A program made the translations under genes and the position numbers. Shown here piece after piece: positions 24,388 through 60,085 of a stretch of 64,000 nt of DNA (its first letter is position 1; each line of letters starts with the position of its first letter). Origin of the DNA: an uncultured Acidobacteriota bacterium (GTDB lineage: Bacteria; Acidobacteriota; UBA6911); contig CAZDMR010000006.1 of assembly GCA_964506795.1 (NCBI GenBank), positions 11,275-75,274 of the forward strand. The letters run 5' to 3'. The notes below the pieces were generated by a model. That model ran no database searches. It saw only the letters and a list, made by a program, of their open reading frames with translations, and was not told where the DNA came from.

Positions 24388-25140
24388 TCATATATTCCTT
24401 ATCTCCGGTATCATTTTTGTACGGGTTTTTTCCGCTATTGCCTTAATCTTGTCAAGGATCTCGTTGGATATCGGGACCTCGATTTCTTCGCCTAAGAACG
24501 GGACATCTTTCATCCTCGATACTTGAAAAAACAATCGGATCGGTTTTTCCATCCGCGTGTACATCAAATTATCCGCCACCTCTTCCCATAGTCTAATGTC
24601 CTCCGCCAGCGCGCTGGTGCTTACAGAGAACAAATATGTTTTACTTCTATCATGCTGCAGGACCTCCGTTAGGTTTTTGATGACCCCGTTATGGTAGGTC
24701 GGCGAAAATAGAAGTAAATTTAGGGCAGATCCGAAAACCAGGGTCCCTAAAGCCGTCTGTTCGACCATTTCCCCGGCCTTCCGGACAACCTCATTCCATA
24801 CGGCCGGCTTTAAGAGATTCGCCTTTATAGTGTCGGTTTCCGTCTGCTCATAGTCCTCCATAGAGGGAACGAACTGAATATAGGCGGTTTTCCCGGCATA
24901 ATCCTCTAGATTCAACCGATAGAGTTCCTTCATGGCGGTTCTGAGAAGTTCGGCCGTCGGATATTGCAGCGGTATGCCTATGACCGATCCACCCGCCCTC
25001 AGCCAAGAAGTGACAAATGCAAATTCGACCAACGGCTTCCCCGTCCCGCCGGGCCCGCTAATAAGGGTTGACGAGGGATAAGGAAAGCCTTCCGGGAGTA
25101 ATTTCCGAAGCCAATCCTGATCCAGAGCTAGAGTGTCCAT
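24388..25140 (-). CDS. single-domain KaiC/RecA-superfamily (COG0467-like) protein with degenerate Walker A - probable pseudo-ATPase
   Basis: The KaiC/Rad55-like fold pattern is present (STLISGPGGTGKPLVEFAF), but the P-loop reads GPGGTGKP with Pro in place of the Ser/Thr after Lys. Confidence 0.6.
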   Translation of the reverse strand: MDTLALDQDWLRKLLPEGFPYPSSTLISGPGGTGKPLVEFAFVTSWLRAGGSVIGIPLQYPTAELLRTAMKELYRLNLEDYAGKTAYIQFVPSMEDYEQTETDTIKANLLKPAVWNEVVRKAGEMVEQTALGTLVFGSALNLLLFSPTYHNGVIKNLTEVLQHDRSKTYLFSVSTSALAEDIRLWEEVADNLMYTRMEKPIRLFFQVSRMKDVPFLGEEIEVPISNEILDKIKAIAEKTRTKMIPEIRNI

Positions 25141-27584: not shown

Positions 27585-27810
27585 TTTAGAATTCCTTTCT
27601 CGTCGGCATTACAATTATTTTAATCATACTCCTATTTGGGCGCGCGAGGGACAATTTCTAAATCCACGGCAAAAAGCAAATGAGCTGTTTGGCAATCGAT
27701 TCAGCTCGGACACGCGCGATCCATAGGGCAAAAAGCAGAAAGAGGCACTCAAAACCACCCGCGACGCCGAAGCGGAAGATTCGTGAATATCCCGGGCAAA
27801 CGGCTGCCTC

Positions 27811-28665
27811 TCAGAATCCAGCCGCTTTTCTCACGCCCAGCATTACCGGAACCGGCCGATGAGCCTTGTCAGACGGGCTGTTGAGCGTCCGCATTTCCTT
27901 GCCCGGTTCCTCTATCAACATGATGCTGCTGCCGCCGCCGTCGAGGTTGATGGATTGGGAACACCCGTGAGATCGAAGGATTTGCGCAAGTTCGTATAGC
28001 GTCACTCCTTCGCTGAAACCCCGTTGGCGCCCATCCACCACAACCAGCAGGAGCCAGGCGCCGCTCTCGTCGTATCCCAGCGCAGTTCTCGGGTGCAGAG
28101 CCCGATCCGCCCTGTCCGGCACGATCCGGGAATCCACTAAAAGCGGAGAAAACCAATCGGAAACAGCTTCCGCCACCGAATCGCCCGTCCCGGGATTTCC
28201 GATGTGAGGCCGCCCCGAGGAATCGAGCCAAAAAGCAGTTCGGCCGCTTTCCACAGGACTGATTGTGGCGCCTTGGGAAACCACCATTCCATGGACATTC
28301 ACCGGGAGGCCTTCAAACCACGCCGGCACGCTGCCCTTATCCTCGTTCAAGCCGGAAAAAGCATTTGCATTGACGGCTGCCAACGCCTGAAACTTCCTGA
28401 ATAAGTCCGCCGGTTTGGCCAATTGACTTTCGGCCGGCCCGGCAGCGTCGGGATCATCTGCTGGAAGTGCTACTACTTCAATCTGTTCGGCCTCAAGAGA
28501 GACTTTCAGAAAATGCATTCTAAGCGGCCGGGGAGATGTACGGATTTCAGTCCAACAAATCAACGCGCCGGGGCTGTCCGGAAACAAATCCAAAGCATCC
28601 TGGTCGCACCCGGCGCAGCATACTAATAAAATGAAGATCGCCGTTCCCGCAAAAACTCTTTTCAT
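27811..28665 (-). CDS. phosphodiester glycosidase family protein (NAGPA-like, DUF2233), lipoprotein
   Basis: NLDGGGSS motif. N-terminal signal with Cys cluster (LLVCCAGC). SD AGGGGA upstream. Confidence 0.7.
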   Translation of the reverse strand: MKRVFAGTAIFILLVCCAGCDQDALDLFPDSPGALICWTEIRTSPRPLRMHFLKVSLEAEQIEVVALPADDPDAAGPAESQLAKPADLFRKFQALAAVNANAFSGLNEDKGSVPAWFEGLPVNVHGMVVSQGATISPVESGRTAFWLDSSGRPHIGNPGTGDSVAEAVSDWFSPLLVDSRIVPDRADRALHPRTALGYDESGAWLLLVVVDGRQRGFSEGVTLYELAQILRSHGCSQSINLDGGGSSIMLIEEPGKEMRTLNSPSDKAHRPVPVMLGVRKAAGF

Positions 28666-29491
28666 TAGAATCCCCTGCTTATTCCCGATTTGCCAGTGAA
28701 TGACAACTGTCTGTTGCTAAACTCGGCTTGCCGGCTTAAAACTGAATTCATCGTTGGGTTCCTGAATCAATGAAACCGTATTCGAGAGGCCTACCGCACC
28801 GTAAAACGAATCTCGTCCAAGACGGTGCCGTCCTCTTGCTCGATTGAAAGTCTATAATCTCCAGGCCGCGGTTTCCATAGGCGGCCGCTTCCGGCCGGGC
28901 CAAGTTCCGCATCATTCAGCTTTAACAGCATCGAGGCCTTTGCGCCCTTGACGGTGAACGTCACGCGCTGCCGCTCACCCGGAATATCGGGATCGATTGC
29001 GATCACCATGTCGTCCGCCGAACTTGTGATGCGAGGGATCACGCCGCGGCGGCTCAACGGAAGGCAAAAACTCAACTCCGCGGGCCGATACCCCCTTGGA
29101 CGTGCGGGCTTTTTGAAAGGGCCGCCCTGCGTGCAACTTCGCCATGACTTCCCGCCAAACGGGCGCCGCGCACGAGACGCGGGATATCCTCGCTCCATTC
29201 CGGTTCAACCGGCATGCCCAGCAGCATGCGCACTGCGTCAGAATCTTCTGCAATCATAAGCCGCCCGAGCGCATCGCTGCGCTCCGTCGAGAATCCCATT
29301 CTTGTGCCCTGAAAGTTGGGCCGCGACCGCAGCATGCTTAGAGCCGTCCTACATTCTTGCTCCGCATTCGGGATACCCTTAGCGCGATCCGGTACACCAA
29401 GCCAATCAATCACAGCCGAGCTCGGCCACAGATTTGGCTCTATTGCAATACTGTCCAGCATAGTCGACCGGGCCGCTCCGTATCGCGACAG
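28647..29491. repeat. diverged segmental duplicate (copy A) of the pbpC 3' end plus an internal A2M segment
   Basis: 28647-~29165 aligns to 37856-~38440: near-identical over the first ~145 nt, about 85-88% over the coding part, with one ~50-nt indel. ~29165-29491 aligns to 40851-41178 inside the A2M gene. Confidence 0.8.
28791..29461 (-). pseudogene. remnant of alpha-2-macroglobulin / PbpC operon (internal deletion, frameshifts)
   Basis: ORFs 28791..29198 and 28975..29253 translate to PbpC C-terminal sequence (PVWREVMAKLHAGRPF..., ...YRLSIEQEDGTVLDEIRFTVR). ORF 29072..29461 translates to an A2M segment (IEPNLWPSSAVIDWLG...). The frames are discontinuous. Confidence 0.7.
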
Positions 29492-29597
29492 CTTGTTTTG
29501 ATGGATTTGCTGCCATGAATATGAGATTATGCAATCACTTTTTTCCCGTTACTCCATAATCCATTCGTGCGGGAAAATTTCGGATAGGAACACGGAG

Positions 29598-31061
29598 ATG
29601 GTGAAGAAAAAACGGGCACCTATGTTGCCGGACGGTATTGAAAAATGCCCGACGGGCATTACGGGCCTTGATGAGATCACCGAGGGTGGATTGCCCCGCG
29701 GCCGCCCGACGCTTGTCTGCGGCGGAGCGGGCAGCGGAAAGACGCTGCTGGCGATGGAGTTTCTCGTTCGCGGCATCACGGAATTCGACGAACCGGGCGT
29801 TTTTGTGGCGTTTGAGGAAACCGCCGAAGAACTGGCTGAAAATGTCTCCTCATTAGGCTTTGACGTAAAGGGCCTGATTGCCCGGAAAAAGCTCGGTATC
29901 GATCACATAGAAATAGAGCGCAGCGAGTACATAGAAACCGGCGAATTCGACCTGGAGGGCCTGTTCGTTCGGATCAATTGGATGATTGAACAGACGAAGG
30001 CCAAGCGCCTGGCTCTCGATACCATCGAAGCGCTTTTTGCCGGGATGCCTAACGAGGCCGTCCTGAGGGCAGAATTGCGGCGCCTGTTCCGCTGGCTCAA
30101 GGACCGAGGTGTCACGGCAATCATCACAAGCGAACAGGGCAAAAACACTCTGACCCGCTACGGCATCGAGGAATACGTCAGCGATTGCGTAATTTTCCTG
30201 GATCACCGCGTGCGCAATCAGATCGCCACCCGCCGGCTGCGGATTGTTAAATATCGCGGATCCAAGCACGGTACCAATGAATATCCTACTGTAATTGACG
30301 AGAACGGCCTGTCGGTCCTGCCGATCAGCTCGCTAGCACTCAATTACCCAGCCGGCAACGAGAGGATTTCATCAGGGTTGCCGTGGTTGGATGACATGAT
30401 GGGCGGCAAGGGCTATTTCCGCGGATCCAGCATTCTGGTTTCCGGCGGCGTCGGTACGGGCAAAACCAGTGTTGCGTCGTCTTTTGTCGACGGCATTTGC
30501 CGCCGCGGCGCACACTGCGTATATATCTCGCTCGAGGAATCACCGGCCCAGATTGTACGAAACATGCAATCCATCGGCATCGATTTGGGAAAGTGGCAGA
30601 AAAGGGGCCTCCTCACCTTCAATTCCGTCCGCCCGACTTTTTTCGGACTGGAGACCCACCTGGCGAAAGTTCACCGGATCGTCGACGAGTTTAATCCCGC
30701 GGCCCTGGTAATGGATCCAATCACAAGCTTTTCCCCAGTGGGAGAAGCAGCCGAAATACGCGCAATGTTGACAAGAATAATGGATTTATTGAAAAGACGC
30801 CGGATAACCACGATATACACAAATCTCACGACCGGAGAAAGCTCGCTGGAAGGAAGCGAAGCCCCAATTTCCTCTCTCATAGACACATGGCTGGTTTTGA
30901 GCATGGTTGAAACCAAGGGAGAAAGATCCCGCTTTCTGCATATTTTAAAAAGCCGGGGAATGGTGCATTCCCTGAAGGACACATACATCCAACTAACCGA
31001 CAGAGGAATTCAAGCTGCGACTAGTCCGCCGATTCCGGGAAGGGACCTTCCGCGAGTGTGA
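29598..31061 (+). CDS. kaiC: circadian-clock-type protein KaiC (double RecA/AAA domain)
   Basis: Two Walker A motifs ([16 protein letters not shown]) with catalytic Glu pairs ([11 protein letters not shown]). A Ser-Ser pair ([11 protein letters not shown]) sits where cyanobacterial S431/T432 lie. ATG 29598 with SD. Confidence 0.9.
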
Positions 31062-31107
31062 ATCATTACGCCTGGAAGGCAAATCCCGATCGACAGGAGA
31101 AGATTTC

Positions 31108-31437
31108 ATGCATCCGGCAGGAAAAGGAAGCAGAAAGTCAGCAAGTCAGAAAGATCCGGGGGAATCGTGGGAATTACGGCTTTACATAGCCGGGGAGACA
31201 CAGCGGGCGGTCGCCGCGCTTACGAATTTGAAAAAGATTTGCGAAGAGCACCTGAATTCCAAGTACCGCATAGAAGTCATAGACCTTCTCAAAAATCCAA
31301 AGTTGGCCAAAGGGGATCAAATCCTGGCGGTGCCTACACTCGTACGCAAGCTGCCGGTGCCTGTGCGCAAAATCATCGGGGATTTGTCGAACACCGAGCG
31401 GGTCCTTGTGGGGCTGGATCTGCGGTCCCGGAGCTGA
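31108..31437 (+). CDS. kaiB: KaiB (thioredoxin-like clock protein), paralog 1
   Basis: KaiB core [12 protein letters not shown]...[12 protein letters not shown]...IGDLS. AGGAGA lies 7 nt upstream. Confidence 0.85.
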
Positions 31438-31480
31438 TACCCGCCCGGCTCTTCATTTTAAAAAGAAAAGGGCGGCCTTC

Positions 31481-31828
31481 ATGGCGGCAAAACGAACTAC
31501 TACCCACAGCGCGCAAAACCCGGAAAAGGCTCCAAATCAAAAGATGTCGAAACAGAAGTACGTTCTGACCCTCTATATTGCAGGGATCAGTCCAAGATCA
31601 TCCGCCGCGATCCGGTCAATCAGGGAAATCTGCGACGAGCATTTGCAAAATCGATATGAACTGGAAATCGTCGATATTTACCAACGGTCGGCTCTGACGA
31701 AAAAGGCCCAGATTGTTGCAGCCCCAACGCTTATCAAAAAACTGCCCAAACCGTTGCGGCGGTTCATAGGAGATCTTTCCGAAAAAGAGCGGATTCTGAT
31801 CGGGCTGGATCTTAAGACCAACAAATAG
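31481..31828 (+). CDS. kaiB: KaiB paralog 2
   Basis: LTLYIAGISPRS...IVAAPTLIKKLP...IGDLS, about 50% identical to paralog 1. A shorter MSKQKY start is possible. Confidence 0.85.
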   Translation: MAAKRTTTHSAQNPEKAPNQKMSKQKYVLTLYIAGISPRSSAAIRSIREICDEHLQNRYELEIVDIYQRSALTKKAQIVAAPTLIKKLPKPLRRFIGDLSEKERILIGLDLKTNK

Positions 31829-31839
31829 TTGGTGCCGTT

Positions 31840-33546
31840 ATGCAGACAAAAAAAAAGCCACCGGAAAAAAGGGCGCAGGAACTTCAGCGGAAGAACAAAG
31901 AACTTCGGCTTCGGCTTGCGGAGGCGGAAGAAACTCTGCGGGCCATCCACGAAGGCGAAGTGGATGCCGTGGTGGTATCCGGGAGGAAAGGCGAACAGAT
32001 TTATTCGCTTGTGGGCGCCGATTCCATTTACCGCCTGATTGTGGAGACCATGAGAGAGGCCGCTTTTATGGTCTCTTTGGAGGGGATAATTCTGTTCTGC
32101 AACGCACAGTTCGGCGAATTCGTCAAACAGCCGATGGAGCGCATCCTCGGCCGGCCTCTGCGGGAATTCGTTAGTCGGGACGACCGCTCTGCTTCCGACT
32201 CGCTGCTGGCGCAAGCCCGGAATCATCCCGTCAAGGATCGGTTGGTTTTTTCCGATGCCGGCGGTAAAGCTAAGCCAGCGCATATTTCCGCCGGCGTTCT
32301 GGATCATCAGGACGGTCCGAGTATCTGCATAGTGGCCACAGACCTGAGCGACCTTGAAAGCTCGTCGAAATTGATTCGTCAACTTTGCGACCAGCGGGAG
32401 GAATTGAACCGGCAGCGCGCTCAGCTGGAAGCGATTTTTAAATACTTACCGGTAGGCATCATAATCGCCGAGTCGCCGTCCGGAAAAATCGTCTTGAGCA
32501 ATGAAAGAGTCGAACAGATCTGGAAGCACGAAAAATTCTCCCAGCCGGAATGCAAAAGCGAGTACGACAAGTACAAAGGATTCCACGCGAACGGCCAGCC
32601 CTATCTTTCCCATGAATGGCCTCTCGCCCGGACTATTGCTTCCGGGGAGAGAGTCCTGCAGGAAGAGGTACGATTTCAGAGGGGCGACGTTTCGTTCGGC
32701 TGGATGTCTATAAACTCGGCCCCAATCCGCGGAAACGACGGGAAAATCATAATGGGCATGGTTGCTTTTACCGACATAACCGCGCGCAAGCAGGCCGAGG
32801 AAGAACTCCTTAGGATGAATGAAGCACTCGAGCGCCGTGTCGCTGAGCGGACCAAAGAGGTTCAACAGCGGGCGGACGAACTGCGAGCGCTGGCTGCTCA
32901 ACTGATTCGCTCAGAGCAAGAAGAGCGCAGCAGCTTGGCGCGGATACTTCATGATCATATCCAGCAGCTCATCGTGGCCGGGCAGTTCCAGTTGGAATAT
33001 ATCAGACAGCGCAGGGATATGGGATTTGAAGAATTGCAGCAAGAAATACAGCAGGCGAACAATATTCTGGACGAAGCATTGGAAGCGTCCCGTTCTTTGG
33101 CCGTCGATCTGTACCCTCCTGCGCTTCACAAAGGCGGATTGATCCAGGCGCTGAAATGGCTTGCCGTCCGCATGCGGGGAAAATACTACTTCACCGTCAA
33201 TCTCGGCGTGGCGGATGATGCAGAGCCGACAAAGGATGAACTGCGGTTTTTCCTCTTTGATTGCGCGAGAGAGTTGCTTCTTAATGCTGTAAAGCACTCC
33301 GGTGTGCGGGAGGCGGACATCGATCTTTCGCGAACCAACAAAAACACAATCCAAATGATCGTGCGCGACCTGGGCAAGGGATTCGATATTGAAAAGTTTC
33401 AGAATCGGAATCCGGAAGAGTCCACTTTCGGCCTGTTCAGCATTCAACAGCGCTTGATATATATGGGAGGCCGGATAGAGATAAAAAGTGTGCCCGGAAA
33501 GGGTACCACTGTCATGCTGGTCGCACCGGATCACCTGATCAGCTAA
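31840..33546 (+). CDS. PAS-domain sensor histidine kinase (HisKA_3 / NarL-partner type), cytoplasmic
   Basis: N-terminal coiled coil, two PAS-like regions, HisKA_3 His box (LHDHIQQLIVAG) and a HATPase_c domain. Starts 11 nt after kaiB2. Confidence 0.85.
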   Translation: MQTKKKPPEKRAQELQRKNKELRLRLAEAEETLRAIHEGEVDAVVVSGRKGEQIYSLVGADSIYRLIVETMREAAFMVSLEGIILFCNAQFGEFVKQPMERILGRPLREFVSRDDRSASDSLLAQARNHPVKDRLVFSDAGGKAKPAHISAGVLDHQDGPSICIVATDLSDLESSSKLIRQLCDQREELNRQRAQLEAIFKYLPVGIIIAESPSGKIVLSNERVEQIWKHEKFSQPECKSEYDKYKGFHANGQPYLSHEWPLARTIASGERVLQEEVRFQRGDVSFGWMSINSAPIRGNDGKIIMGMVAFTDITARKQAEEELLRMNEALERRVAERTKEVQQRADELRALAAQLIRSEQEERSSLARILHDHIQQLIVAGQFQLEYIRQRRDMGFEELQQEIQQANNILDEALEASRSLAVDLYPPALHKGGLIQALKWLAVRMRGKYYFTVNLGVADDAEPTKDELRFFLFDCARELLLNAVKHSGVREADIDLSRTNKNTIQMIVRDLGKGFDIEKFQNRNPEESTFGLFSIQQRLIYMGGRIEIKSVPGKGTTVMLVAPDHLIS

Positions 33547-33822
33547 TTCGCATTTCTCCCCGGCTTCCATGGCGAGGCGGCCCAGACGGGCATGCATGCA
33601 AGGCGCGCGGCCGCACAGTTCCGCAGTCGTATCCGGCAGGACATCGCGCAACGCGACCGGGCGCAACATCATGGACACGCCCGGATCCTCCGTAACAAGC
33701 ATTTCCGATATCGCCAACCTGGTGAATGAAAGCCAAATTTTCCGGGCATATTCTGTAACGTACAAGAGAGGGCGTCGGTCTATAGCCATAGAGGATGACA
33801 TAAACTGAAAAGGAGCACTGTA

Positions 33823-36321
33823 ATGGATCCCGTCCAACCGAATGAGCCCGACAAACGCAGGACAGTGAAGGTGGAACCGTTGGAAATCCGCGATTTGTAC
33901 CTCCGGTGCGATCCGGACCAGTTCCATTTTGAAACCACATCGGAACTGGAATTCGATATCGGGCCGGTGCATCAGCCGCGGGCGGCTGAATCGCTGAAAT
34001 TCGGCATGAATATTGAACACGAAGGCTACAACATATTCGCCCTGGGGCACCCCGGTACCGGCAAATATACACTCGTGAACCGATTCCTGCAGAATCAGGC
34101 GAAGAACGAAAAACGCCCTCAAGACATATGCTACGTCAACAACTTCGAAGAATCCCACAAGCCGCGAATCCTCCAGATGCCCCCCGGAAAAGGGAAAGAG
34201 CTATCCGGGGATATGAAAAACCTGGTGGATGAAATAGGCAACAGCCTGCGGGCCGCTTTCGAAAATGAAGAAAATCAGAACAGGCGGCAGAGAATTGCTC
34301 AAGATCTGGCCGACCGGCAGCAGAAGGCCTTCGAGGAGCTGCAAAAAAACGCGGAGAAGCGGGAATTGAGTCTCTTTCGTATGCCGGGAGGCTTTGCATT
34401 TGCTCCCATCCGCGATGGAGAGGTGATTCCACCGGAAGAATTTAAAAAGCTGCCTGAAGATGAGCGGAAGAAAGTCGAAGAACAGGCTCAGGAACTGATG
34501 CAGGAGGCGCAGAAGCTGTTCCAGAAGATCCCCCAGTGGGAGCGCGAGGTCCGGGAAAAAAGCCGGGAGTTAAACCAGGAAATAACCCAGTATGCAATCG
34601 GCCCGCTCCTGGAGGAGATCCGAAAGAAATACGCGGGAATGCCGAAAGTTCTGGATTATGTGGATGCGGTGGAAAAAGACATTATCGACAACGCCCAGGC
34701 CATCCTCGAGCAGCAGGAAAGCCGGCCTCAGCTGCTGCTACAACAGGCGGCGCAGGGCCAAGCGCAGCAGCAGGAACTGTTTCCCGGGCCATCTTCACAA
34801 GCACAACCTCCTATCCTGCGGCGATACCAAGTTAATGTCCTGGTAGACCACAGCGAGACAAAAGGCGCGCCGGTTATACACGAATACAATCCTACATATC
34901 AAAATGTCACCGGACGTGTGGAGCACCTGGCTCAAATGGGAATGCTGCTCACCGATTTTAATATGATCCGGGCCGGCGCTCTGCATCGGGCCAACGGCGG
35001 TTATTTGATTCTCGATAGTCTTAAAGTACTGATGCAGCCTTTCGCCTGGGAAGGCCTGAAGCGGGCATTGCAAACGCGGGAGTTGAAGATAGAGTCTTTG
35101 GGACAGGCGTACAGCCTGGTCAGCACCGTCTCCCTGGAACCGGAGCCGATGCCGCTGGATGTAAAAGTCATACTGCTCGGCCCCCCGCAGATCTACTACC
35201 TTCTGCGCGCCTACGATCCTGAATTCGGGAAGCTCTTCAAAGTAGCTGCGGACTTTGATTATGAGATGGCGCGCACCAGCGAAAACCAGGAAGCCTATAG
35301 CAAATTGATTGCCGACGTGGCGCGCACCGAGGGGCTGCGCTCCTTGGACCGCAATGCCGTCGCAAGGGTCATCGAACAGAGCGCCCGAAACGCCGGGGAC
35401 AAGGAAAAGCTTTCCGTGCATCTGCAGAGCATGACGGACCTTCTAAAAGAATCGGATTACTGGGCGGGACAGAATGGCAATGGTGCGGTTTCCGCCGCAG
35501 ACGTTCAAAAAGCCATCGATTCCCGGATCTACCGCTCGGACCGGGTGCGGGAGCGGATCCAGGAGCACATCACGCGCGGAACCATCATCATCGACACCGA
35601 GGACGCCAAGGTCGGGCAGGTCAACGGGCTTTCAGTCATCACTCTCGGAGATTTCTCCTTTGGACAGCCCAACCGGATCACGGCCAGGGTCCGCATGGGA
35701 AAAGGCGAAGTCGTGGATATCGAGAGGGAAGTGGAAATGGGCGGCCCGATTCACTCCAAAGGCGTTCTGATCCTGGCCGGTTTTTTGGGCGCCCGGTACG
35801 CCGTGAAGCTGCCCCTGTCGCTTTCGGCCAGCCTGGTATTCGAGCAGTCTTATAACAGCATAGAGGGTGACAGCGCTTCCTCGGCCGAACTGTATGCCCT
35901 GCTTTCGGCTATTGCCGGCGTGCCCGTCAAGCAATCCTTTGCGGTGACGGGATCGGTGAACCAGCACGGACAGATTCAGCCCATCGGAGGCGTGAATGAA
36001 AAAATCGAGGGGTTCTTTGATATCTGCAAGGCGAAGGGGTTGAACGGCGATCAGGGTGTGCTCATTCCTGCGTCCAACGTGAAAAACCTGATGTTGCGGC
36101 GGGATGTGATCGAGGCGGTGGAACAGCAAAAATTCCGCGTATATCCCGTGGAAACCGTCGACCAGGGCATAGCGCTGCTTACCGGGATGGAGGCCGGTGA
36201 ACCGGATGCGGAGGGCGACTATCCGGAAGAAACCGTCAACGGCAAGGTTCAAAGGAGGCTGGAAGATTTTGCGGAAAGGCAGAAGAAATTCAGCATATCC
36301 GGAGAAAAGGTGAATTCATGA
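33823..36321 (+). CDS. Lon-like AAA+ ATP-dependent protease (COG1067 / LonB-like, soluble)
   Basis: Walker A GHPGTGKYT. C-terminal S16 Lon domain with catalytic Ser (GDSASSAEL) and Lys (IGGVNEKIEGF). AAAGGAG SD. Confidence 0.8.
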   Translation: MDPVQPNEPDKRRTVKVEPLEIRDLYLRCDPDQFHFETTSELEFDIGPVHQPRAAESLKFGMNIEHEGYNIFALGHPGTGKYTLVNRFLQNQAKNEKRPQDICYVNNFEESHKPRILQMPPGKGKELSGDMKNLVDEIGNSLRAAFENEENQNRRQRIAQDLADRQQKAFEELQKNAEKRELSLFRMPGGFAFAPIRDGEVIPPEEFKKLPEDERKKVEEQAQELMQEAQKLFQKIPQWEREVREKSRELNQEITQYAIGPLLEEIRKKYAGMPKVLDYVDAVEKDIIDNAQAILEQQESRPQLLLQQAAQGQAQQQELFPGPSSQAQPPILRRYQVNVLVDHSETKGAPVIHEYNPTYQNVTGRVEHLAQMGMLLTDFNMIRAGALHRANGGYLILDSLKVLMQPFAWEGLKRALQTRELKIESLGQAYSLVSTVSLEPEPMPLDVKVILLGPPQIYYLLRAYDPEFGKLFKVAADFDYEMARTSENQEAYSKLIADVARTEGLRSLDRNAVARVIEQSARNAGDKEKLSVHLQSMTDLLKESDYWAGQNGNGAVSAADVQKAIDSRIYRSDRVRERIQEHITRGTIIIDTEDAKVGQVNGLSVITLGDFSFGQPNRITARVRMGKGEVVDIEREVEMGGPIHSKGVLILAGFLGARYAVKLPLSLSASLVFEQSYNSIEGDSASSAELYALLSAIAGVPVKQSFAVTGSVNQHGQIQPIGGVNEKIEGFFDICKAKGLNGDQGVLIPASNVKNLMLRRDVIEAVEQQKFRVYPVETVDQGIALLTGMEAGEPDAEGDYPEETVNGKVQRRLEDFAERQKKFSISGEKVNS

Positions 36322-37175
36322 ACGAGGCAAATCGGAACAGTTCATCGGAAATCCGCCGTATCCTGGTTGCGGTGGACGCCTCCCCGCGCAGTTTGGCCAG
36401 AATCGAGACCGCAGCGGAGCTGGCCGCGAATCTGCAGGCGGAACTCATCGGCATTTTCGTAGAAGAAGCAAACCTTTTGCGGATGGCGGAACTGCCTTTT
36501 GCCAGGGAAATCAGCATGTTTTCGCCGATCGTCCGCCGGATCGAGCTCGAGCGGCTTCAGTGGGAGCTCCGCGCGCAGGCTGATCGAATGCGGCGGGCCC
36601 TGGCCTCGGCGGCGGATTCCAGAAAGGTTCCCTGGACGTTCAGCCAAGTTCGGGGTTCCGTGGCGGCGGAGGTTCTGGCGGCGGCTTCCAAAGCGGATCT
36701 GATCATTGTGGGCAAAATGACGTGGGCGCCGGCCGGAGCGAGGCGGCTCGGATCCGAGGTTCAAATGATACTGAGGCAGGGCAGGGGATTGACGCTGGTT
36801 ATCCACGAGCGAACCAGCTGGAGCCTGCTTCCGATCACGGTGGTTTTCGACGGTTCGGATCTGTCCCAAAAAGCCCTGCACATAGCGGCCCGTCTGGTAC
36901 AAATCCACGGCGGCAGGCTGAATGTCCTGATCCTGGCTTCCGGCCGGGAGACGGCCCGGGAAAAGCAGGCAAAGGTTGCGGAAGAATTGTCGGAGCGGAA
37001 GCTTGCGGCCGAATTCCGCCTTTTGATCAATCCGACCCTTAACACGGTCGCCTGGCTGGTTCAAAATCTGGGAAGCAATCCTCTGGTGCTTCCCTGCAGC
37101 GAAAATCTTTTGCAGGGCGAAGAATTGTGTTCTCTGATCCGCGATGTCGACAATCCGGTGTTCCTTGTGAGATAG
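36318..37175 (+). CDS. universal stress protein, tandem Usp domains
   Basis: Two UspA-like halves (ILVAVDASPRS...; ITVVFDGSDLS...). Its start overlaps the Lon-like stop (ATGA). Confidence 0.85.
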   Translation: MNEANRNSSSEIRRILVAVDASPRSLARIETAAELAANLQAELIGIFVEEANLLRMAELPFAREISMFSPIVRRIELERLQWELRAQADRMRRALASAADSRKVPWTFSQVRGSVAAEVLAAASKADLIIVGKMTWAPAGARRLGSEVQMILRQGRGLTLVIHERTSWSLLPITVVFDGSDLSQKALHIAARLVQIHGGRLNVLILASGRETAREKQAKVAEELSERKLAAEFRLLINPTLNTVAWLVQNLGSNPLVLPCSENLLQGEELCSLIRDVDNPVFLVR

Positions 37176-37694
37176 CGGCCCCTTGACGGATCCGGCGGCT
37201 TCGCCCCCGGATTGAAACGCCTCAAATTATTTCGAGAACCTCTATCTCAAAATTAAGATTCTTGCCCGCCAAGGGGTGGTTTGGCACAAGAGTAATTCTT
37301 TCATCGGTAAAATCGCTTGCGGAAACCAGGAAACCATGCACTCCGGCCGGAATGCCGGAAAAGATCAGCCCGTATCCTCCGTATCCATTGTTCGCCTGTG
37401 ATGGGCCATTTTATAAATTCGGGGGGCGGAGCTCCAGCCGGTTTCAAAAAGATACCGGCATTGGCGGGCGCGGTCCATCGGTATCGTCTTATTCAACGGG
37501 GAAACTGTAAACACGGGAAATAGCGGCAGCCGAGGTCATGATATGCCGTGCGTAAGCCTAGCCTGCGCCTAAATTGCGGCACCAAACCGCAGCGCTCCAA
37601 GAGGCCGCCTGATTGAAACATTTGGGAATTGAGCAGTGAAACGCTGCTGAAACCGGTGCCTGTCGGAGGGGAAATTCCCGTTTGGCGCCGAAAC

Positions 37695-37874
37695 TCACCT
37701 ACGGCGCCTCAATGAAAACTGCGCCTTCCCCTGCGCCGGATAATATATTCGATAGATTCGCCCGCCGCGGTCGTCCGAAACCAGTAGGGCGCCGTCTGGC
37801 ATCACCAGGACATCGACAGGGCGGCCGAATCCCTCGCTGTCCACGAGCCAGCCTTCCGCAAAAACTCTTTTCAT
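37695..37874 (-). pseudogene. chimeric 59-codon ORF: first 6 codons identical to the glycosidase gene start, fused to a C-terminal beta-propeller fragment (PQQ-sugar-dehydrogenase/SMP-30-like)
   Basis: Hand translation gives MKRVFA|EGWLVDSEGFGRPVDVLVMPDGALLVSDDRGGRIYRIYYPAQGK... The duplicated block begins exactly at the ATG. Confidence 0.4.
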
Positions 37875-37999
37875 TAGAATCCCCTGCTTATTCCCGATTT
37901 GCCAGTGAATGACAACTGTCTGTTGCTAAACTCGGCTTGCCGGCTTAAAACTGAATTCATCGTTGGGTTCCTGAACCAATGAAACCGTATTCTAGAGGC

Positions 38000-40126
38000 C
38001 TACCGCACCGTAAAACGAATTTCGTCCAAGACGGTGCCGTCCTCTTGCTCGATTGAAAGCCTATAAGCGCCCAACTGAGGCTCCCATAATCGGTCGCCTT
38101 CGGCGGGGCCGAGAGCGGCGCCATTGAGTTTAAGAATTATGGAAGCGTTTGCGCCTTTAACGGAGAGCGGCACACGCTGCCGCTCCCGCGGAATATCGGG
38201 ATCGATTGCAATCACCATGCCGTCCGCCGGACTTGTGATGCGCGGGATCTCGCCGCGGGAGCCAACGGCAACAACGCGCTGCGTCATCGTATCCCCCAAG
38301 AACCATTCGCTCCGCGGCGGCTCAACGGGAGGCGAAAACTCAACGGGGCCGGCCGATACTCCCTTCGGCGCGCGGGGCGCTTGAAAAGGCCGCCCTGCGT
38401 GCAATTCCGCCATGACTTCCTGCCAGACAGGCGCGGCGCCCGTTACGCCGCTCACATCGTGCATCGAATCGCCTTCAAAATTTCCAACCCATACGGCAAC
38501 CGTGAAGAGCCTGGAAAACCCCACGCACCAGTTGTCGCGCATGTCTTTGCTGGTTCCGGTCTTGGCTGCGCTCCAGTATGGAGTGTTGAGATAGTTGGCA
38601 AGGCCGAAAGTCACGGTTCGAGCCGCGCGGTCGCTTAAGATATCGTCAATGATAAAACTGGCGTCCTCCGACATTACGCGCCGCTCCGCAGCCGCGCCGC
38701 CGGTCTGCAGGCGAATCGGCGTCCAGCGCCCTCCCCGCGCAAGGGCGCGGTACGCCTGCGCCTGTTCCCAAAGGCTCACTTCGGCCGAACCCAGCGCCAG
38801 GGAATATCCGTAGAATTCCGCGCTTTCGGTGATACCCAAATAACCAAGCCTGCATAACCGGTCGCGGAATGCGTCGACGCCTACCAGCATCAGAGCGCGC
38901 ACGGCGGGGATATTCAAGGAACCCCCGAGGGCCGTGCGGACGCTCACCAGTCCTTTGTAATCCTGCTCATAATCCTGCGGATGATAGAGTCCGCTCGCGG
39001 TTTCAAGATTTAGAGGAGCATCTTCCAGCAAAGAAGCCGCGGTTAGATAACGCCGTTCCAGCGCAATTCCGTACAGGAACGGTTTCAGCGTCGAGCCGGC
39101 TTGCCGCCTTGCCCGCACGCCGTCAACCTCGCCTGCGCTTGACTGAGGGCCGGCCGAACCGACATAGGCAAGCACTTCGCCGCTGTCATTGTCGACCACA
39201 AGGACGGCTCCGTCGCGAACGTTGCGCCCCTCAAGGCCGGAAAGATGCCGGCTCAGTATATCCCGCGCCAGCCGTTGCGTGCGTCCATCCAGCGTGGTGT
39301 GGACGCGCGCCCCCGGCTTTTTGGCTAACATGCGCGCCACATGCGGGGCCATCGGGATTGACAAATCCTCCGCGGCAGGCCGCGCAAAGAGATCGGCCGC
39401 CGCGCCGCGAATAGCTTCGCAGCTTATAGGCAGTCCTCGCGATGCGGCTCTTGCGCAAGCTCGCTCCACAATGCGTTCTTTTGCCGCATTCGGAGCCGGC
39501 AGCAAAGCGGCCAGCACGAGGCTTTCAGCCAGATTGAGCCCGGACGGCGCTTTGTCGGCGAGCAGCCGGGCGGCGGCGCCGATCCCTTGAAGTTCCCCGC
39601 GATAGCCGAGCAAATTCAGATATGCCTCGAGAATCTGCTCCTTGCTCCAGCGAGCTTCCAGCCGCTGCGCGGCCCTCATTTGAGCGCACTTGCGCTTCAG
39701 CGCGGAACTCTCACGCCTCGCCGGCACTCCCGCATCGATCAGAGCCGCGAGCTGCATGGTAATGGTGCTGCCGCCCCGGATGCGCCTGTGGATGACGTAA
39801 TCCTTAACCGCGCCGATCATGCCGAGCCAGTCTACGCCGGAGTGACTCCAGAATCGCCGGTCCTCGCCGTCGATAACGGCTTCCACAAGCGCCGGCGAAA
39901 CTGCCTCCAACTCGACCCATTCGAAGCGCCTCACGCCGTAGTTCACGCGCACGCTGTCGAGCGGATCCCCGTGCCGGTCGAGGACATAGGCTTCCGAAGG
40001 CACCCATCTTGATTTCACGGCCTCAAATTCGGGGACATTGGGATACGGCCGAAAGACCATCACCGCAATACCGGCGGCAACAGCGACGCCGGCAATCATC
40101 AGGATTGGACCAAACCGCCGTATCAT
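38000..40126 (-). CDS. pbpC: penicillin-binding protein 1C (transglycosylase GT51 + transpeptidase + PbpC C-terminal domain)
   Basis: GT51 motifs (EDRRFWSHSGVD, RGGSTITMQLA), a transpeptidase region and the PbpC-specific C-terminal domain. Its start overlaps the A2M stop. Confidence 0.9.
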   Translation of the reverse strand: MIRRFGPILMIAGVAVAAGIAVMVFRPYPNVPEFEAVKSRWVPSEAYVLDRHGDPLDSVRVNYGVRRFEWVELEAVSPALVEAVIDGEDRRFWSHSGVDWLGMIGAVKDYVIHRRIRGGSTITMQLAALIDAGVPARRESSALKRKCAQMRAAQRLEARWSKEQILEAYLNLLGYRGELQGIGAAARLLADKAPSGLNLAESLVLAALLPAPNAAKERIVERACARAASRGLPISCEAIRGAAADLFARPAAEDLSIPMAPHVARMLAKKPGARVHTTLDGRTQRLARDILSRHLSGLEGRNVRDGAVLVVDNDSGEVLAYVGSAGPQSSAGEVDGVRARRQAGSTLKPFLYGIALERRYLTAASLLEDAPLNLETASGLYHPQDYEQDYKGLVSVRTALGGSLNIPAVRALMLVGVDAFRDRLCRLGYLGITESAEFYGYSLALGSAEVSLWEQAQAYRALARGGRWTPIRLQTGGAAAERRVMSEDASFIIDDILSDRAARTVTFGLANYLNTPYWSAAKTGTSKDMRDNWCVGFSRLFTVAVWVGNFEGDSMHDVSGVTGAAPVWQEVMAELHAGRPFQAPRAPKGVSAGPVEFSPPVEPPRSEWFLGDTMTQRVVAVGSRGEIPRITSPADGMVIAIDPDIPRERQRVPLSVKGANASIILKLNGAALGPAEGDRLWEPQLGAYRLSIEQEDGTVLDEIRFTVR

Positions 40127-43100
40127 TTTACAGGCTCCACGACCATCGCCGCGTTTGGAAATTCACCGAGCATTTCCGGCGCATATAACGCTTCGACGCG
40201 CGTCGCAGGCAGAAGGAACGTTCCGGGATTGTTGAGACGCACGGTGTACTCTACTGTCCACTTCCCTTTGGGGACAAACCGGTAGTAAGCGCGGAACGCT
40301 TCGAAGCGGCGCTCTTCAAATGCCGGCCAAACCCAGCCCTCCCGGCGCTCCCCCCGCTGCAGGATCCGAGATTGCCCGCCGAGACCCGAACCCAAAGCAG
40401 TCGCTCCGCCTGGGATGGGATCGTCAACGACGACCCAACTCATGTCGGATTGTGCTTCAAGTTCCAGCCGCACCCGCGCCACGTCGCCCGCAGTCCAGCG
40501 GCCCTTGACTGCCTGAGCGACCGGAATTACCGCCCGGCTTATTTTGTAGCCGGTCGACAAAGGAGCATCGAGGGGCAAAGCCGCAGTCGTTCGCAGCATG
40601 AGCCAGGGACTTCCCGCCCCTTGATGTTTCACATCGAGTGTGCCGCGCCCGGCATCCCAGGGCAAAACAATAGTGCCCGCGCCGGCCGCACGCGGCCAGG
40701 TTACGGATTTCTTCTCCGCGGCATATTGGACGGAGGTGGCGCCTGAAACAGGAGTCGATTCGAAAGCGGCGGAAAACTTTTCAAGAGCGAGCACTCCCCA
40801 TGCATTGGCGACCGTCGTATTCCAATGCCCGCGCTGCTGCCTGCCGAGAGCGCCGCGCACGAGACGCGGGATATCTTCACGCCAGTCCGGTTCCCCCAGC
40901 ACCGCCAGCAGCATGCGCACGGCGTTGGAATCTTCGGAAATCATAAGCCACCAGAGGGCATCGCTGCGCTCCGTCGAGAATCCCATAATCGTACCCTGAA
41001 AGTTAAGCCGCGATCGCAGGATGCTTAGAGCCGTCCGGCGTTCTTCCGGCGCATTCGGGATGCCCTGAACACGCTCCAGGATACCAAGCCAATCAATCAC
41101 GGCCGAGGTCGGCCACAGATTCGGCTCTATTGTAATGCTGTCCAGCATATCGGCCCGGGCCGCGCCGTATCGCGACAGGGCATCGATCGCCGCAACTTTG
41201 CGAATGGCAAGATCGGCGGTCGGCAAAGCCGAGCGCCGCACAATTCGGCCTTCAACAAAACCGGTCAGCGCCTGTATAAGGCCCTGCCTTAGGGAATAAG
41301 GAATTTCCCATCCCGCTTCCTGCCCGATCGCAAGCACATAAGCCGTCAGTGTGTCCTCTCCCTCAAGCCATCTTGTGGGAAAGTACTTGAGCAAACCATC
41401 CCGGTCCGTATAGGCGGGAAGCCGGTTCATCCACGAATTCCACCAGCTGCGATCACGCAGCGCAACTGCCCGCGAGATGCTCTGCTCGAGGCAGACGTAC
41501 GAATAGAACTGCATATATTCGCGGACGCCTTCCAGATTATCCCCGAGCTTAGCGCGGAGGTCGACCTCCAGGCCGCCGCGTCCGGAAATAGAGCCCTTCG
41601 GCCGCTCGGCCGGCATTGACAAAGGCCCTGTCAATTGCGCAATGGTTGCTTGATAGGTCCGCACCGGATAGGCTGGAATCACGTTTTGGACGACTTTCAA
41701 CGAATCCAGCACGGTCCCGTTCGGTCCCGTTGCATTGACCGTCCAGGTTATCTTTTCATAGCCGACCGGAGCCTCAAACCGCCACACGACCTTGCGCGCT
41801 TCGCCGGCTCGCAGCGCGAGGGCTGCGTTCAATGCTTGCGGTGAAGATGCCGGCTTTGACGGGACCGTTTCGGCATCCAATTCGAGTTGAATCTCGCGGT
41901 CGGTCGTATTGCGCACGGTAAAGGAAGCCGCATAGCGGTCGCCTTCCCGCACCAGGGGCGGCAGGCCCGACATTAAGATCAAATCCTGAGTCGTCGCAAT
42001 GGCCGCCGTGCCCGTGCCGAAAAGCTGGGCGCCGCTGTGCGCGATCGCGGCAATGCGAAACGACGTCATGGAATCGTTCAGGGGGACCGTTACCATTGCC
42101 TCGCCGTTGGCATCCAACACAACGCGCGCGCGCCACATAAGCAGCGTGTCGAAGAGCTCGCGCGCGACTTCTCTTCCGCCGCCTCCGCCGTGGAGCACCG
42201 CCTTCTTGCCGTAATGCCTTTTTCCGACGACTTGCATCTGCGCTGTTGAAGTCCAGACTTCAAGCCCCCTTATGCCCATCATGGCTTCGAGCAGAGCCCA
42301 GCTGCGGTTGGGCATGAGCTCAAGGAGCGCTTCGTCCACGGCGGCGATGGCGACTTCCGTTCCTGCAGGCAGCCTGCCGCCGTTGGCGCGCGTCACTTTG
42401 ATACGCACCTTGGCTTTCTCCCGCACGCGGTATGTTGTTTGTTCCGGAGTGACGCGCACATCCAGGCGATGAGGCTTCCAGCCGACGCGAATCTCGGCCA
42501 TCCCCAGACGATAAGCCGGCTTGTTCAAATCGACGAGCGCGGTGATGTCGGCGTCGCCTGGCCCGTTACGTGCCTTTGAACTCTCGCTGCGGGCCACGCG
42601 GCCGCGCACTGCAAGAACCGATACGAAAACGTTTGGAGCAAAATTGTCCTTGATAGGCACTTCGATTCTTGGCTCGCGGCCGTTCAGTTTGGTGACAAAA
42701 CTCTCAAGGATTCCTTCGCGCTCAACGGTGACGAGCGCCGTCGCCGACCGGAAGGGCATGCGCACCTGAAAGCGGGCCGTCTGACCGCTTTCGTATTCCT
42801 TTTCCTCCGGCAATAGATCCATGCGGTCGCCCGACGTGCCGCCGAACCACCAGTCGTCCTCTCCGACAACCCAGATAGACGCTGTTGCGAGCGCGGGATT
42901 GCCGGCCTTGTCCTGCGTTTCAGCCCGCAGCAGTATTTCTCCCGATACCCCGGGCGCAATTTCACAAACGAGAAGGCCCTGCGCATTGGTTTTTCCGGCG
43001 CAGCTCGTCGGGAGTTTTTTGGTCTCGGTTATTGTGCTGTAAGCATAGAAACCGCCTATCAGCCGCTTGCGGTAGGAATATGCTTTTGCTTGAAAAAGGT

Positions 43101-53087: not shown

Positions 53088-53270
53088 TTAACCCGAATTA
53101 TTCATGAGGATTCGTAGCGAGGCGGCGTAGACCGGCATGGATACAAGGCGCGCGACCGAGAGCCCCGCAGGCGTACTCGACAGTACGTCGAGGAGCTCGA
53201 AGGAGCGCAACGCAGGAAACATGCCTGGATCCGGCGCCGCAGTAGAAGCTTCACGAATAATCCGGGTTAA
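53088..53270. mobile_element. MITE-like element (R2), complete copy with ~20-bp terminal inverted repeats
   Basis: Left end is TTAACCCGAATTATTCATGAGG. Right end is CTTCACGAATAATCCGGGTTAA, its reverse complement. The 183-bp element exactly fills the gap between two convergent/divergent genes. Confidence 0.7.
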
Positions 53271-59956: not shown

Positions 59957-60085
59957 CCCGAATTATTCATGAAGGTTCGCTGCGAGGAAGCGCAGACGGG
60001 TACGAATGCGAGACGCGCGGCGGCAGGATCCCGCAGCCGCCCTTGACAGTAACTCAAGGAATCCGGCCGAGCGCAACGCAGCCGA
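59957..60085. repeat. MITE-like element, 5' portion (R3)
   Basis: CCCCGAATTATTCATGAAGGTTCGCTGCGAGGAAGCGCAG... and the internal block GAGCGCAACGCAG are shared with R2. No right terminal repeat. Confidence 0.5.

Follow-up and report, generated by a model that had tools for sequence, protein, structure and literature searches.

Decayed remains of a second A2M-pbpC operon, with mosaic identity to the intact copy, in an uncultured Acidobacteriota bacterium

The window analysed here is a 64-kb stretch of DNA from an uncultured Acidobacteriota bacterium, and all coordinates refer to it. Beside the intact NAGPA lipoprotein gene, and immediately upstream of it in the transcription sense, lies a segment (28647-29491) that resembles parts of an alpha-2-macroglobulin (A2M)/pbpC operon located 9.2 kb away in direct orientation. 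Is this segment a gene or the remains of one, and how did its two ends come to differ so strongly in their similarity to the intact operon?

The intact copy (38000-45957) comprises a class-I A2M with the CxEQ motif and bacterial A2M domains, and an adjacent, co-oriented gene for PBP1c (Table 1). The thioester motif CLEQ occupies residues 1489-1492 of A2M, and the A2M stop overlaps the pbpC start as ATGA. This locus has the layout of a yfhM-pbpC type operon, with a thioester A2M translationally coupled to PBP1c. Such juxtaposition of the two genes has already been described (PMC3328433).

A blastn self-search of the 64-kb window returned three colinear matches between the segment and the intact operon, and these were its only strong internal repeats. 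The similarity between 28.6-29.5 kb and 37.8-41.2 kb reported in the initial annotation was thus confirmed, including the assignment of ~29165-29491 to an internal part of A2M. The alignment offsets between the two loci are 9209, 9268 and 11687, so 59 bp and 2419 bp of the intact operon are missing from the segment; the length that remains (3323 - 59 - 2419 = 845 bp) is the same as the span of 28647-29491. The part from 28647 to ~29165 had been described as the pbpC 3' end with its intergenic region. Its homology is real, but it continues past the intergenic region and takes in the first 19 nt of NAGPA. The pbpC part contains an additional 59-bp frameshifting deletion between direct repeats that had been overlooked.

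Table 1 Features of the relic locus and of the intact operon locus (window coordinates)
Feature	Coordinates	Strand	Description
Gene X, NAGPA/phosphodiester-glycosidase, 284 aa, intact, downstream	27811-28665	-	Pfam PF09992, E 1.5e-29
Near-identical tract	28647-28850	-	98.5% identical to 37856-38059
pbpC' segment 1, diverged part	28851-29043	-	PBP1c residues ~626-687 (BiPBP_C domain); in frame with the near-identical tract
59-bp deletion junction	29044-29060		Intact 38253-38311 missing; overlap of two BLAST alignments, 9268 - 9209 = 59
pbpC' segment 2	29061-29162	-	PBP1c residues ~559-607; frame differs from segment 1; 80.4% DNA identity
2419-bp deletion junction	29163-29166		Three-way alignment; 11687 - 9268 = 2419
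A2M' segment	29167-29491	-	Intact A2M residues 1594-1702; third reading frame; 84.6% DNA identity, ungapped
FKBP-type peptidyl-prolyl isomerase tail, last ~30 residues	37222-37341	-	NCBIfam PRK15095 profile positions 114-143 of 156, E 6.5e-6
Chimeric 59-aa ORF	37695-37874	-	Start and first 6 codons of gene X joined in frame to a C-terminal beta-propeller blade (NHL/GSDH-like)
Tract counterpart, intact locus	37856-38059	-	19-nt stub of gene X, 125-nt spacer, last ~20 codons of intact pbpC
Intact pbpC (PBP1c, 708 aa)	38000-40126	-	NCBIfam TIGR02073, 607 bits (cut-off 494); Pfam Transgly, Transpeptidase, BiPBP_C
Intact class-I bacterial A2M (1944 aa)	40123-45957	-	Pfam bMG3, MG2, bMG5, A2M_BRD, A2M, bMG10
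Match 1 (blastn)	28647-29060 / 37856-38268		87.7% identity; E 5e-147
Match 2 (blastn)	29044-29180 / 38312-38448		82.5% identity; E 1e-34
Match 3 (blastn)	29163-29491 / 40850-41178		84.8% identity; ungapped; E 1e-103

What survives in the segment corresponds to PBP1c residues ~559-708 minus 20 (~150 codons) and 109 codons of A2M. Each of the three pieces is in a reading frame of its own, as the fragmented ORFs had initially suggested, and no small indels or stop codons were found within them. An ORF at 28791-29198 matches Pfam BiPBP_C, and the translation of the second pbpC' segment, SCAAPVWREVMAKLHAGRPF..., pairs with TGAAPVWQEVMAELHAGRPF... of the intact PBP1c. The A2M' segment lies ~100 residues downstream of the position of the CLEQ motif. 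At its right end, where it adjoins the kaiC upstream region, it is abruptly truncated, and all of A2M upstream of codon 1594 is gone. Judged by Pfam domains and by motif position, the complete frames with transglycosylase domain, transpeptidase domain and CLEQ thioester that characterize a functional A2M-PBP1c pair are absent; the segment derives from a second copy of the yfhM-pbpC type unit but differs from it in having none of the catalytic or thioester motifs. It is significantly similar, and colinear, to a functional gene, yet its frames are disrupted by the 59-bp deletion, the 2419-bp deletion and 5' truncation. The region 28647-29491 is therefore a non-functional relic of a second class-I A2M/PBP1c operon copy, derived from the family but not a functional member of it, and has no function of its own. 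The initial view of a decayed, internally deleted second copy stands.

Short direct repeats are found at the end-points of both deletions, with the microhomologies read from the intact copy as a proxy for the relic's own ancestor. The 59-bp deletion, which causes a frameshift, sits between imperfect direct repeats of ~18 nt (CCGCGG..GC.CAACGG). Its exact microhomology in the proxy parent is 6 nt, and the chance of at least 6 nt is 0.003. The 2419-bp deletion took out pbpC codons 1-~558 and A2M codons ~1703-1944. Here GCGC is common to both parental positions and lies inside a 10/12 imperfect match; the chance of at least 4 nt of exact microhomology is 0.023 with the same proxy. About 2.4 kb had been thought to be missing at a short GC-rich microhomology, in good agreement with these measurements. 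The microhomology itself is weaker than had been claimed, as it contains no clean 10-mer. Both deletions resemble those of bacterial pseudogene erosion, in which sequence is lost between short direct repeats by replication slippage or illegitimate recombination under a deletional bias. Compared with that process, neither the deletions nor the relaxed constraint described below are unusual.

We then consider the constraint on the remaining codons. With L002 as outgroup, dN was 0.110 on the relic branch and 0.012 on the intact branch, and 37 polarised amino-acid changes were relic-derived versus 10 intact-derived, many of them at positions invariant in 12 outgroups. For the A2M' segment (dS 0.34 and dN 0.12 against the intact copy), 19 changes were relic-derived, including invariant WW->GR and L->P. 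Segment 1 of pbpC' has 76.8% DNA identity to the intact copy, with dN/dS of 0.24 and dS of 0.73, and overall dN/dS between relic and intact copy is 0.24-0.44. Because nearly all amino-acid change falls on the relic branch, the outgroup polarisation indicates that the relic drifted roughly neutrally for most of its history, consistent with the old pseudogene originally proposed. This relaxed constraint is seen over only 208 codons, none of which has yet become a stop codon. The probability of finding no stop is 0.05-0.29, varying with the number of neutral substitutions, and the stop-free frames are thus only weakly compatible with long neutral drift. Furthermore, dS between the two copies is 0.34, whereas dS from the copies to L002 is 1.3-1.9. 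A value of ~0.34 against more than 1.3 to the nearest sampled genome shows that the copies split well after the split from that genome.

Identity is not evenly distributed along the relic. The 85-88% initially given for its coding parts averages a zone of 98.5% (28647-28850) and a zone of 77-85% to the right of it. In the tract at the left end, 3 of 204 columns differ (positions 28767, 28784 and 28812), compared with 115 of 620 to the right (81.5% identity). The maximum chi-square breakpoint falls at 28851 (Fisher p 3.6e-12), a value reached by none of 2000 permutations. On the relic side, 19 nt of the tract belong to the start of the NAGPA gene; a spacer of 125 nt (28666-28790) follows, then the stop codon of pbpC' (28791-28793) and its final ~20 codons. 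The tract holds a 120-nt exact core. The reading frame is continuous across the tract boundary, and this register indicates homologous continuity rather than a random junction. Simple old divergence is insufficient to explain 3 differences in 204 bp; a recent exchange between the two loci is needed. The mosaic suggests that ectopic gene conversion or recombination took place recently between them.

A significant block of excess identity, in register with diverged homology, is what ectopic (interlocus) gene conversion between diverged paralogues produces, and the relic and its intact counterpart switch sharply from 98.5% to ~81%. A length of ~200 bp is within the usual range of bacterial conversion tracts. 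Three features set this case apart from usual interlocus conversion. One partner is a pseudogene, and the tract runs from the end of one gene across a spacer into the beginning of another, unrelated one. Further, diverged homology is present on one side only, as the tract extends to the very edge of detectable homology (28647/37856). This is awkward for classical two-sided conversion unless homology once extended further, and one-ended repair or later deletion in the flank is also required. As for the direction of the exchange, G+C, GC3 and GC->AT asymmetry gave no signal. All residues conserved in 80 homologues are retained in the 21 codons of the tract (P ~0.1), which mildly favours transfer from the intact copy to the relic, or may be chance.

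Truncated gene ends adjoin the tract at the intact locus, indicating that this flank was rearranged as well. A chimeric ORF marks the breakpoint at 37855/37856. Its propeller blade is similar to the C-terminus of a PF07995 GSDH ORF in L003 (tblastn, E 7e-5), and its PDB matches are NHL blades and residues 312-338 of 352 of chain 2ism. No remainder of the GSDH-like propeller gene and no further A2M or pbpC debris were found within the window by tblastn. With the tail of an FKBP-type isomerase also remaining beyond it, the flank downstream of intact pbpC is likewise rearranged and eroded by deletions, the same erosion process that shaped the relic.

Taken together, we consider it probable that the relic is a dead second copy that underwent near-neutral decay and deletions between short repeats, followed by a later short exchange with the intact locus. 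In this account, the two copies parted well after the nearest sampled genome had branched off. The second copy then lost its function and has drifted near-neutrally for most of the time since. The 59-bp and 2419-bp deletions whittled it down, and all of A2M ahead of codon 1594 was lost. Much later, a short ectopic conversion or recombination may have homogenised ~200 bp, from the final ~20 codons of pbpC through the spacer and 19 nt into NAGPA, which would leave one end of the relic nearly identical and the remainder diverged. Deletions at the intact-locus flank would have left the 19-nt NAGPA stub on a single propeller blade, with the FKBP tail beyond. The stub can be read in two ways. The ancestral duplicate may have had a second NAGPA gene that was later deleted, amounting to complementary loss at the two loci, or the stub may have been copied in during break repair.

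Whether the second operon arose within this genome bears on the first step of the preferred account. The relic could instead be a xenolog, that is, an A2M-pbpC operon acquired horizontally from a related lineage (dS ~0.3-0.7 away), with decay, deletions and later conversion unchanged. We regard this as a serious but rather doubtful alternative. Such an origin fits the patchy distribution of A2M-pbpC operons, which are believed to be transferred horizontally (Budd et al. 2004, as cited in PMC3328433), and the G+C content of both copies (0.59-0.62, compared with 0.52-0.57 in neighbouring genes). The flanking genes, moreover, are different in every relative examined. On the other hand, among 5.8 billion proteins and 185,579 genomes, the nearest PBP1c sequences have 72-74% amino-acid identity, the closest to the intact one being 74%. 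The relic is by far the closest relative of the intact copy at synonymous sites, for which in-genome duplication is the simplest account. Scans of genomes with PBP1c and of metagenomes with the NAGPA protein, and searches of 5.8 billion proteins, detected no sister genome or strain with an intact second operon at this position. The nearest NAGPA homologue is 72% identical, and homologues of 60-72% occur widely across Acidobacteria metagenome bins, surrounded by other genes. Among the best matches, no relative whose context was examined has NAGPA, the propeller gene or the kaiC cluster beside pbpC, and the spacers downstream of pbpC and the flanking genes in relatives are unrelated to those here.

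For the exchange itself, a specific variant of the preferred account, not opposed to it, is one-ended repair. A double-strand break just downstream of functional pbpC would have been repaired with the relic locus as template, copying the tail of pbpC', then the spacer and the initial 19 nt of NAGPA, after which the new strand would have been joined non-homologously to the other broken end inside the beta-propeller gene. A single event would then account for the 98.5% tract as well as for the NAGPA stub and the truncation of the propeller gene, without a second NAGPA gene ever having existed. The tract stops exactly where homology ends, abutting a gene fragment in frame. The relic locus, with its complete gene, is the native site of the NAGPA start and its lipoprotein-like signal (MKRVFAGTAIFILLVCCAGC). 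Nevertheless, the invading end requires homology to the right of 38060, where identity is the lowest of the alignment (~60-77%). Functional PBP1c would also hold 21 codons from a long-dead pseudogene, yet its conserved C-terminal residues are intact, and the separately truncated FKBP tail shows that several deletions occurred on this flank anyway. This variant is judged unlikely, though conceivable.

Two further explanations give the tract or the relic a function, in conflict with the preferred account of a dead copy and a recent exchange. It is very unlikely that the tract is old and owes its near-identity to purifying selection acting on a non-coding element with a function, for instance a terminator, promoter, leader or small RNA. 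The tract does hold the NAGPA ribosome-binding site and start codon and presumably its promoter. However, the high identity includes the synonymous sites of 21 codons and the 125-nt spacer, next to coding sequence with dS of 0.3-0.7. Rfam, tRNA, sigma-70-like promoter and terminator scans of the tract were all empty, and its RNA folding was no better than that of shuffled sequence (z 0.25). At the intact locus the element would drive only the 59-aa chimeric ORF, and in distant relatives the spacer sequence is absent both downstream of pbpC and upstream of NAGPA. Scarcely credible is the idea that the relic is not inert, either because the ~200-bp tract is a functional module (pbpC 3' end/terminator plus NAGPA promoter, leader and start) that couples expression at both loci, or because transcripts of the relic, either antisense or arising by read-through from the kaiC side, pair with the 3' end of the mRNA of the functional A2M-pbpC operon. 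If such base-pairing did occur, the relic would be a pseudogene-derived regulator of its parent operon.

The arrangement at the relic locus is reproduced by the independent JGI contig Ga0307422_1020749 (2589 bp, metagenome 3300031369), which is 100% identical to window positions 27770-30358, from NAGPA across the entire relic to the start of kaiC. When the 59-aa ORF, Usp and PBP1c were looked up as exact proteins, no second contig emerged in support of the intact-locus junction at 37856. That the relic is a chimeric join or a collapsed or misplaced repeat from a mixed population has a negligible probability: the source is evidently a metagenome-assembled contig, and a 204-bp near-identical repeat with its exact core can mislead short-read assemblers, but besides the identical contig, two direct repeats with one intervening segment allow only one linear order that uses all segments, and the diverged 620 bp are unique sequence, continuous and in frame with the tract. 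The initial annotation had rejected an assembly artefact as well.

An origin of the 204-bp repeat through insertion of a mobile element or a Campbell-type event was also considered and rejected, as a single crossover of diverged copies would not give a 98.5% tract. The 9.2-kb segment between the repeats encodes only KaiC-like, PAS histidine kinase, Lon-like and Usp proteins; no integrase, transposase, att-like features, mobile-element domains or tRNA were found in it.

This uncultured lineage once had two A2M-pbpC operons and kept one. Apart from its mosaic identity, which is the new point, the relic is an ordinary pseudogene, and its significance beyond annotation is little. It does provide a clean, small example of three textbook processes occurring together: neutral decay, short-repeat deletion and conversion of a short tract between two loci, one of them a pseudogene. 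Positions 28666-29491 should be annotated as a pseudogene remnant rather than as the small ORFs predicted there by gene callers; one public assembly annotates 87-aa and 94-aa 'BiPBP_C' genes inside it. At both loci, the near-identical repeat is a practical hazard for assemblers and read mappers.

A blastn search of the relic at 28647-29491 against the whole window returned exactly three colinear matches, which a window-wide rerun also gave, and their targets were the pbpC 3' end, the sequence downstream of pbpC and an internal part of A2M. The alignment offsets relative to the intact operon (9209, 9268, and 11687) indicate that the relic lacks 59 bp and 2419 bp of that operon, and its reported span is recovered exactly (3323 - 59 - 2419 = 845 bp). 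The initial annotation, which described a decayed, internally deleted copy of the A2M-pbpC tail missing about 2.4 kb, was therefore correct in outline. Its ORF fragments in different frames were also recovered, as three coding pieces in three different frames, each free of internal indels and stop codons. The pbpC part owes its frameshift to the 59-bp deletion and not to small scattered indels. The A2M piece falls in the thioester-domain region, roughly 100 residues beyond CLEQ; everything upstream of codon 1594 is gone, the relic adjoins the kaiC upstream region, and a tblastn search of the window turned up no other A2M or pbpC remains. After the relic, in minus-strand sense, a 125-nt spacer separates its pbpC stop from the NAGPA gene start.

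Features of the relic and intact A2M-pbpC loci, in window coordinates
Feature	Position	Strand	Details
blastn match 1	28647-29060		to 37856-38268; 87.7%, E 5e-147
blastn match 2	29044-29180		to 38312-38448; 82.5%, E 1e-34
blastn match 3	29163-29491		to 40850-41178; 84.8%, ungapped, E 1e-103
Relic A2M piece	29491-29167	minus	A2M residues 1594-1702
Relic GCGC junction	29166-29163	minus sense	2419-bp deletion site
Relic PBP1c piece	29162-29061	minus	residues ~559-607
Relic 59-bp deletion junction	inside 29060-29044	minus sense	
Relic PBP1c tail	29043-28794	minus	residues 626-708
Relic pbpC stop codon	28793-28791	minus	
NAGPA/phosphodiester-glycosidase lipoprotein gene	27811-28665	minus	intact, 284 aa; PF09992, E 1.5e-29
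FKBP-type peptidyl-prolyl isomerase C-terminal fragment	37222-37341	minus	last ~30 residues; NCBIfam PRK15095
Chimeric ORF	37695-37874	minus	59 aa; MKRVFA|EGWLVDSEGFGRPVDVLVMPDGALLVSDDRGGRIYRIYY...; breakpoint 37855/37856 just downstream of functional pbpC
pbpC (PBP1c)	38000-40126	minus	708 aa; NCBIfam TIGR02073, 607 bits (cut-off 494)
Alpha-2-macroglobulin (A2M)	40123-45957	minus	1944 aa; bMG3, MG2, BRD, A2M, bMG10 domains

In the intact operon, PBP1c has Transgly, Transpeptidase, and BiPBP_C Pfam domains, A2M carries its thioester CLEQ at residue 1489, and the A2M stop codon overlaps the pbpC start (ATGA). The locus is an instance of the published class-I A2M/PBP1c pairing (PMC3328433). The G+C content of the operon (38000-45957) is 0.60-0.63 versus 0.52-0.57 in its surroundings, which is compatible with a foreign origin of the operon family in this genome.

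The relic is not an assembly artefact, as the initial annotation already stated. The NAGPA protein to its left also occurs in JGI metagenome 3300031369, on an independent contig of 2589 bp that matches 27770-30358 at 100% identity and runs from the NAGPA gene through the entire relic to the kaiC start. Furthermore, with two direct repeat copies and one segment between them, a single linear order accommodates all pieces, and the 620 diverged relic bases are unique sequence, continuous and in frame with the repeat. A search for a second assembly across the intact-locus junction found none. The public annotation of the JGI contig Ga0307422_1020749 places two small genes of 87 and 94 aa within the relic, naming the 94-aa one 'BiPBP_C' (contig positions 1024-1568, window ~28791-29335); these are pseudogene fragments wrongly annotated as genes, and the relic is mainly of use for correct annotation.

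The relic deletions would have arisen at short direct repeats. With the intact copy standing in for the parent of the relic, the 59-bp deletion, an additional slippage event absent from the initial annotation, lies between imperfect direct repeats (..CGCCGCGGGAGCCAACGG.. / ..CTCCGCGGCGGCTCAACGG..) with 6 exact bases common at the junction, while a three-way alignment places the 2419-bp deletion at GCGC within a 10/12 match (GCGC-GCGC-CG). The chance of exact microhomology among 200,000 random pbpC/A2M junction pairs was 0.003 for at least 6 nt and 0.023 for at least 4 nt. The short repeats at both deletions favor the microhomology-mediated deletion proposed earlier, but the 10-mer cited for it is exact in neither parent, and the microhomology is weaker than claimed.

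Nei-Gojobori estimates between relic and intact copies gave dS 0.34 and dN 0.12 for the A2M piece, 0.39 and 0.17 for pbpC piece 2, and 0.73 and 0.17 for the diverged pbpC tail. The nearest genome among 185,579 species representatives was an Acidobacteria metagenome bin (L002, 72% PBP1c identity), and the next best PBP1c among 5.8 billion proteins was 74% identical. For the A2M piece, dS to L002 was 1.3 from the intact copy and 1.9 from the relic; the two copies in the window thus resemble each other far more than they do any sampled sequence. The corresponding dN values (0.098 intact-L002, 0.196 relic-L002, and 0.122 intact-relic) yield, with L002 as outgroup, branch dN of ~0.110 for the relic versus ~0.012 for the intact copy. 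Amino-acid changes polarised with the 12 best outgroups were 37 relic-derived versus 10 intact-derived; where all outgroups agree, the relic has acquired, among others, WW->GR, three L->P, G->D, and P->S. By these asymmetries, the relic has evolved near-neutrally over most of the period after the two copies diverged, and the label of old pseudogene was right. The absence of stop codons from 208 relic codons is only mildly surprising (P 0.29 at 40 neutral substitutions, 0.05 at 100). Both copies have G+C of 0.59-0.62 versus 0.52-0.57 in neighboring genes, and the second copy came either from in-genome duplication or from a relative.

Instead of the 85-88% identity first reported, the relic is strongly mosaic. 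The tract 28647-28850 (37856-38059 at the intact locus) has 3 differences in 204 columns (98.5% identity), while the columns to the right, starting at 28851, have 115 in 620 (81.5%), the three diverged pieces having 77, 80, and 85% in turn. A maximum chi-square scan set the breakpoint at 28851 (Fisher's exact p 3.6e-12), and the observed statistic was reached in none of 2000 permutations. Included in the tract are the final ~20 codons of pbpC, the spacer in full, and 19 nt (ATGAAAAGAGTTTTTGCGG) at the start of the NAGPA gene. The reading frame runs on in register across the identity switch (...LWKPRPGDYRLSIEQ... vs ...LWEPQLGAYRLSIEQ...), so the switch is a homologous exchange point and not a random junction. 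The mosaic pattern points to recent interlocus exchange, best explained by a short and recent event of ectopic gene conversion or recombination between the two loci; composition tests on its direction were uninformative. Selection on a non-coding element keeping the tract identical is unconvincing, given that the tract yielded no Rfam family, tRNA, sigma-70-like promoter or terminator, and folds no better than shuffled sequence (z = 0.25), and that pbpC is followed by unrelated spacers in relatives.

At the intact locus, the tract ends at 37856, 19 nt into a NAGPA start. In the chimeric ORF there, the NAGPA promoter-proximal region, ribosome-binding site, start, and first 6 codons are fused in frame to 53 codons of a single C-terminal beta-propeller blade (NHL/GSDH-like). 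Matches to the blade are the C-terminus of a glucose/sorbosone-dehydrogenase ORF (PF07995) on another sequence (L003; tblastn E 7e-5), blades of NHL type, and PDB chain 2ism at residues 312-338 of 352; the window holds no other parts of the propeller gene. The FKBP fragment aligns to positions 114-143 of 156 in its model (E 6.5e-6). The stretch 37176-37874 is thus a series of truncated 3' gene ends: several deletions have eroded the flank of the functional operon. Two histories both fit. The ancestral duplicate may have included a second NAGPA gene, conversion would then have homogenised the NAGPA-start/spacer/pbpC-tail region, and a later deletion would have removed the second NAGPA body, giving complementary loss at the two loci. 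Alternatively, in a single one-ended break-repair event, ~200 bp of the relic locus would have been copied and attached to a broken propeller gene. This accounts for the tract reaching the very edge of homology, but it needs strand invasion at the least similar part of the alignment and places pseudogene-derived codons in a working PBP1c, yet the conserved C-terminal residues are all intact.

Overall, the observation stands and the earlier interpretation was largely right, amended by the 59-bp deletion, weaker microhomology, mosaic identity, and the rearranged functional-locus flank. The components are all well-known processes, namely the decay of a pseudogene, deletions at short repeats, and conversion between paralogous genes, and the relic is a tidy but ordinary example of them.

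Neither locus has an integrase, transposase or tRNA nearby. The 9.2 kb between the copies holds a co-oriented plus-strand cluster (29529-37175) whose products are a double-domain ATPase resembling KaiC, a PAS/HisKA_3 histidine kinase, an AAA protease of the LonB/LonC-like type, and a tandem-Usp protein; an ORF at 24388-25140 is weakly KaiC-like. Synteny was no help: Acidobacteria bins commonly carry NAGPA homologues (60-72%), which never adjoin pbpC, and downstream of pbpC at the closest loci are ABC-transporter genes or REP-like palindromes. The closest PBP1c (74%) is carried by three independent Logan contigs, L085 (8879-8917), L086, and L087, which all break 37 nt past the pbpC stop within a REP-like palindrome (GCCGGCGTCTCGCCGGC); on L085, a Y1 (IS200/RAYT-type) transposase gene (96-710) lies directly upstream of A2M. 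Within the window, a ~120-nt G+C-rich intergenic repeat, one copy of which had no Rfam match, occurs in three ~74% identical copies (33572-33688, 53092-53232, and 59957-60081) with the core GCGAGGCGGCGCAGACGGGCATG...GCGCGCGGCCGCAG...GAGCGCAAC.
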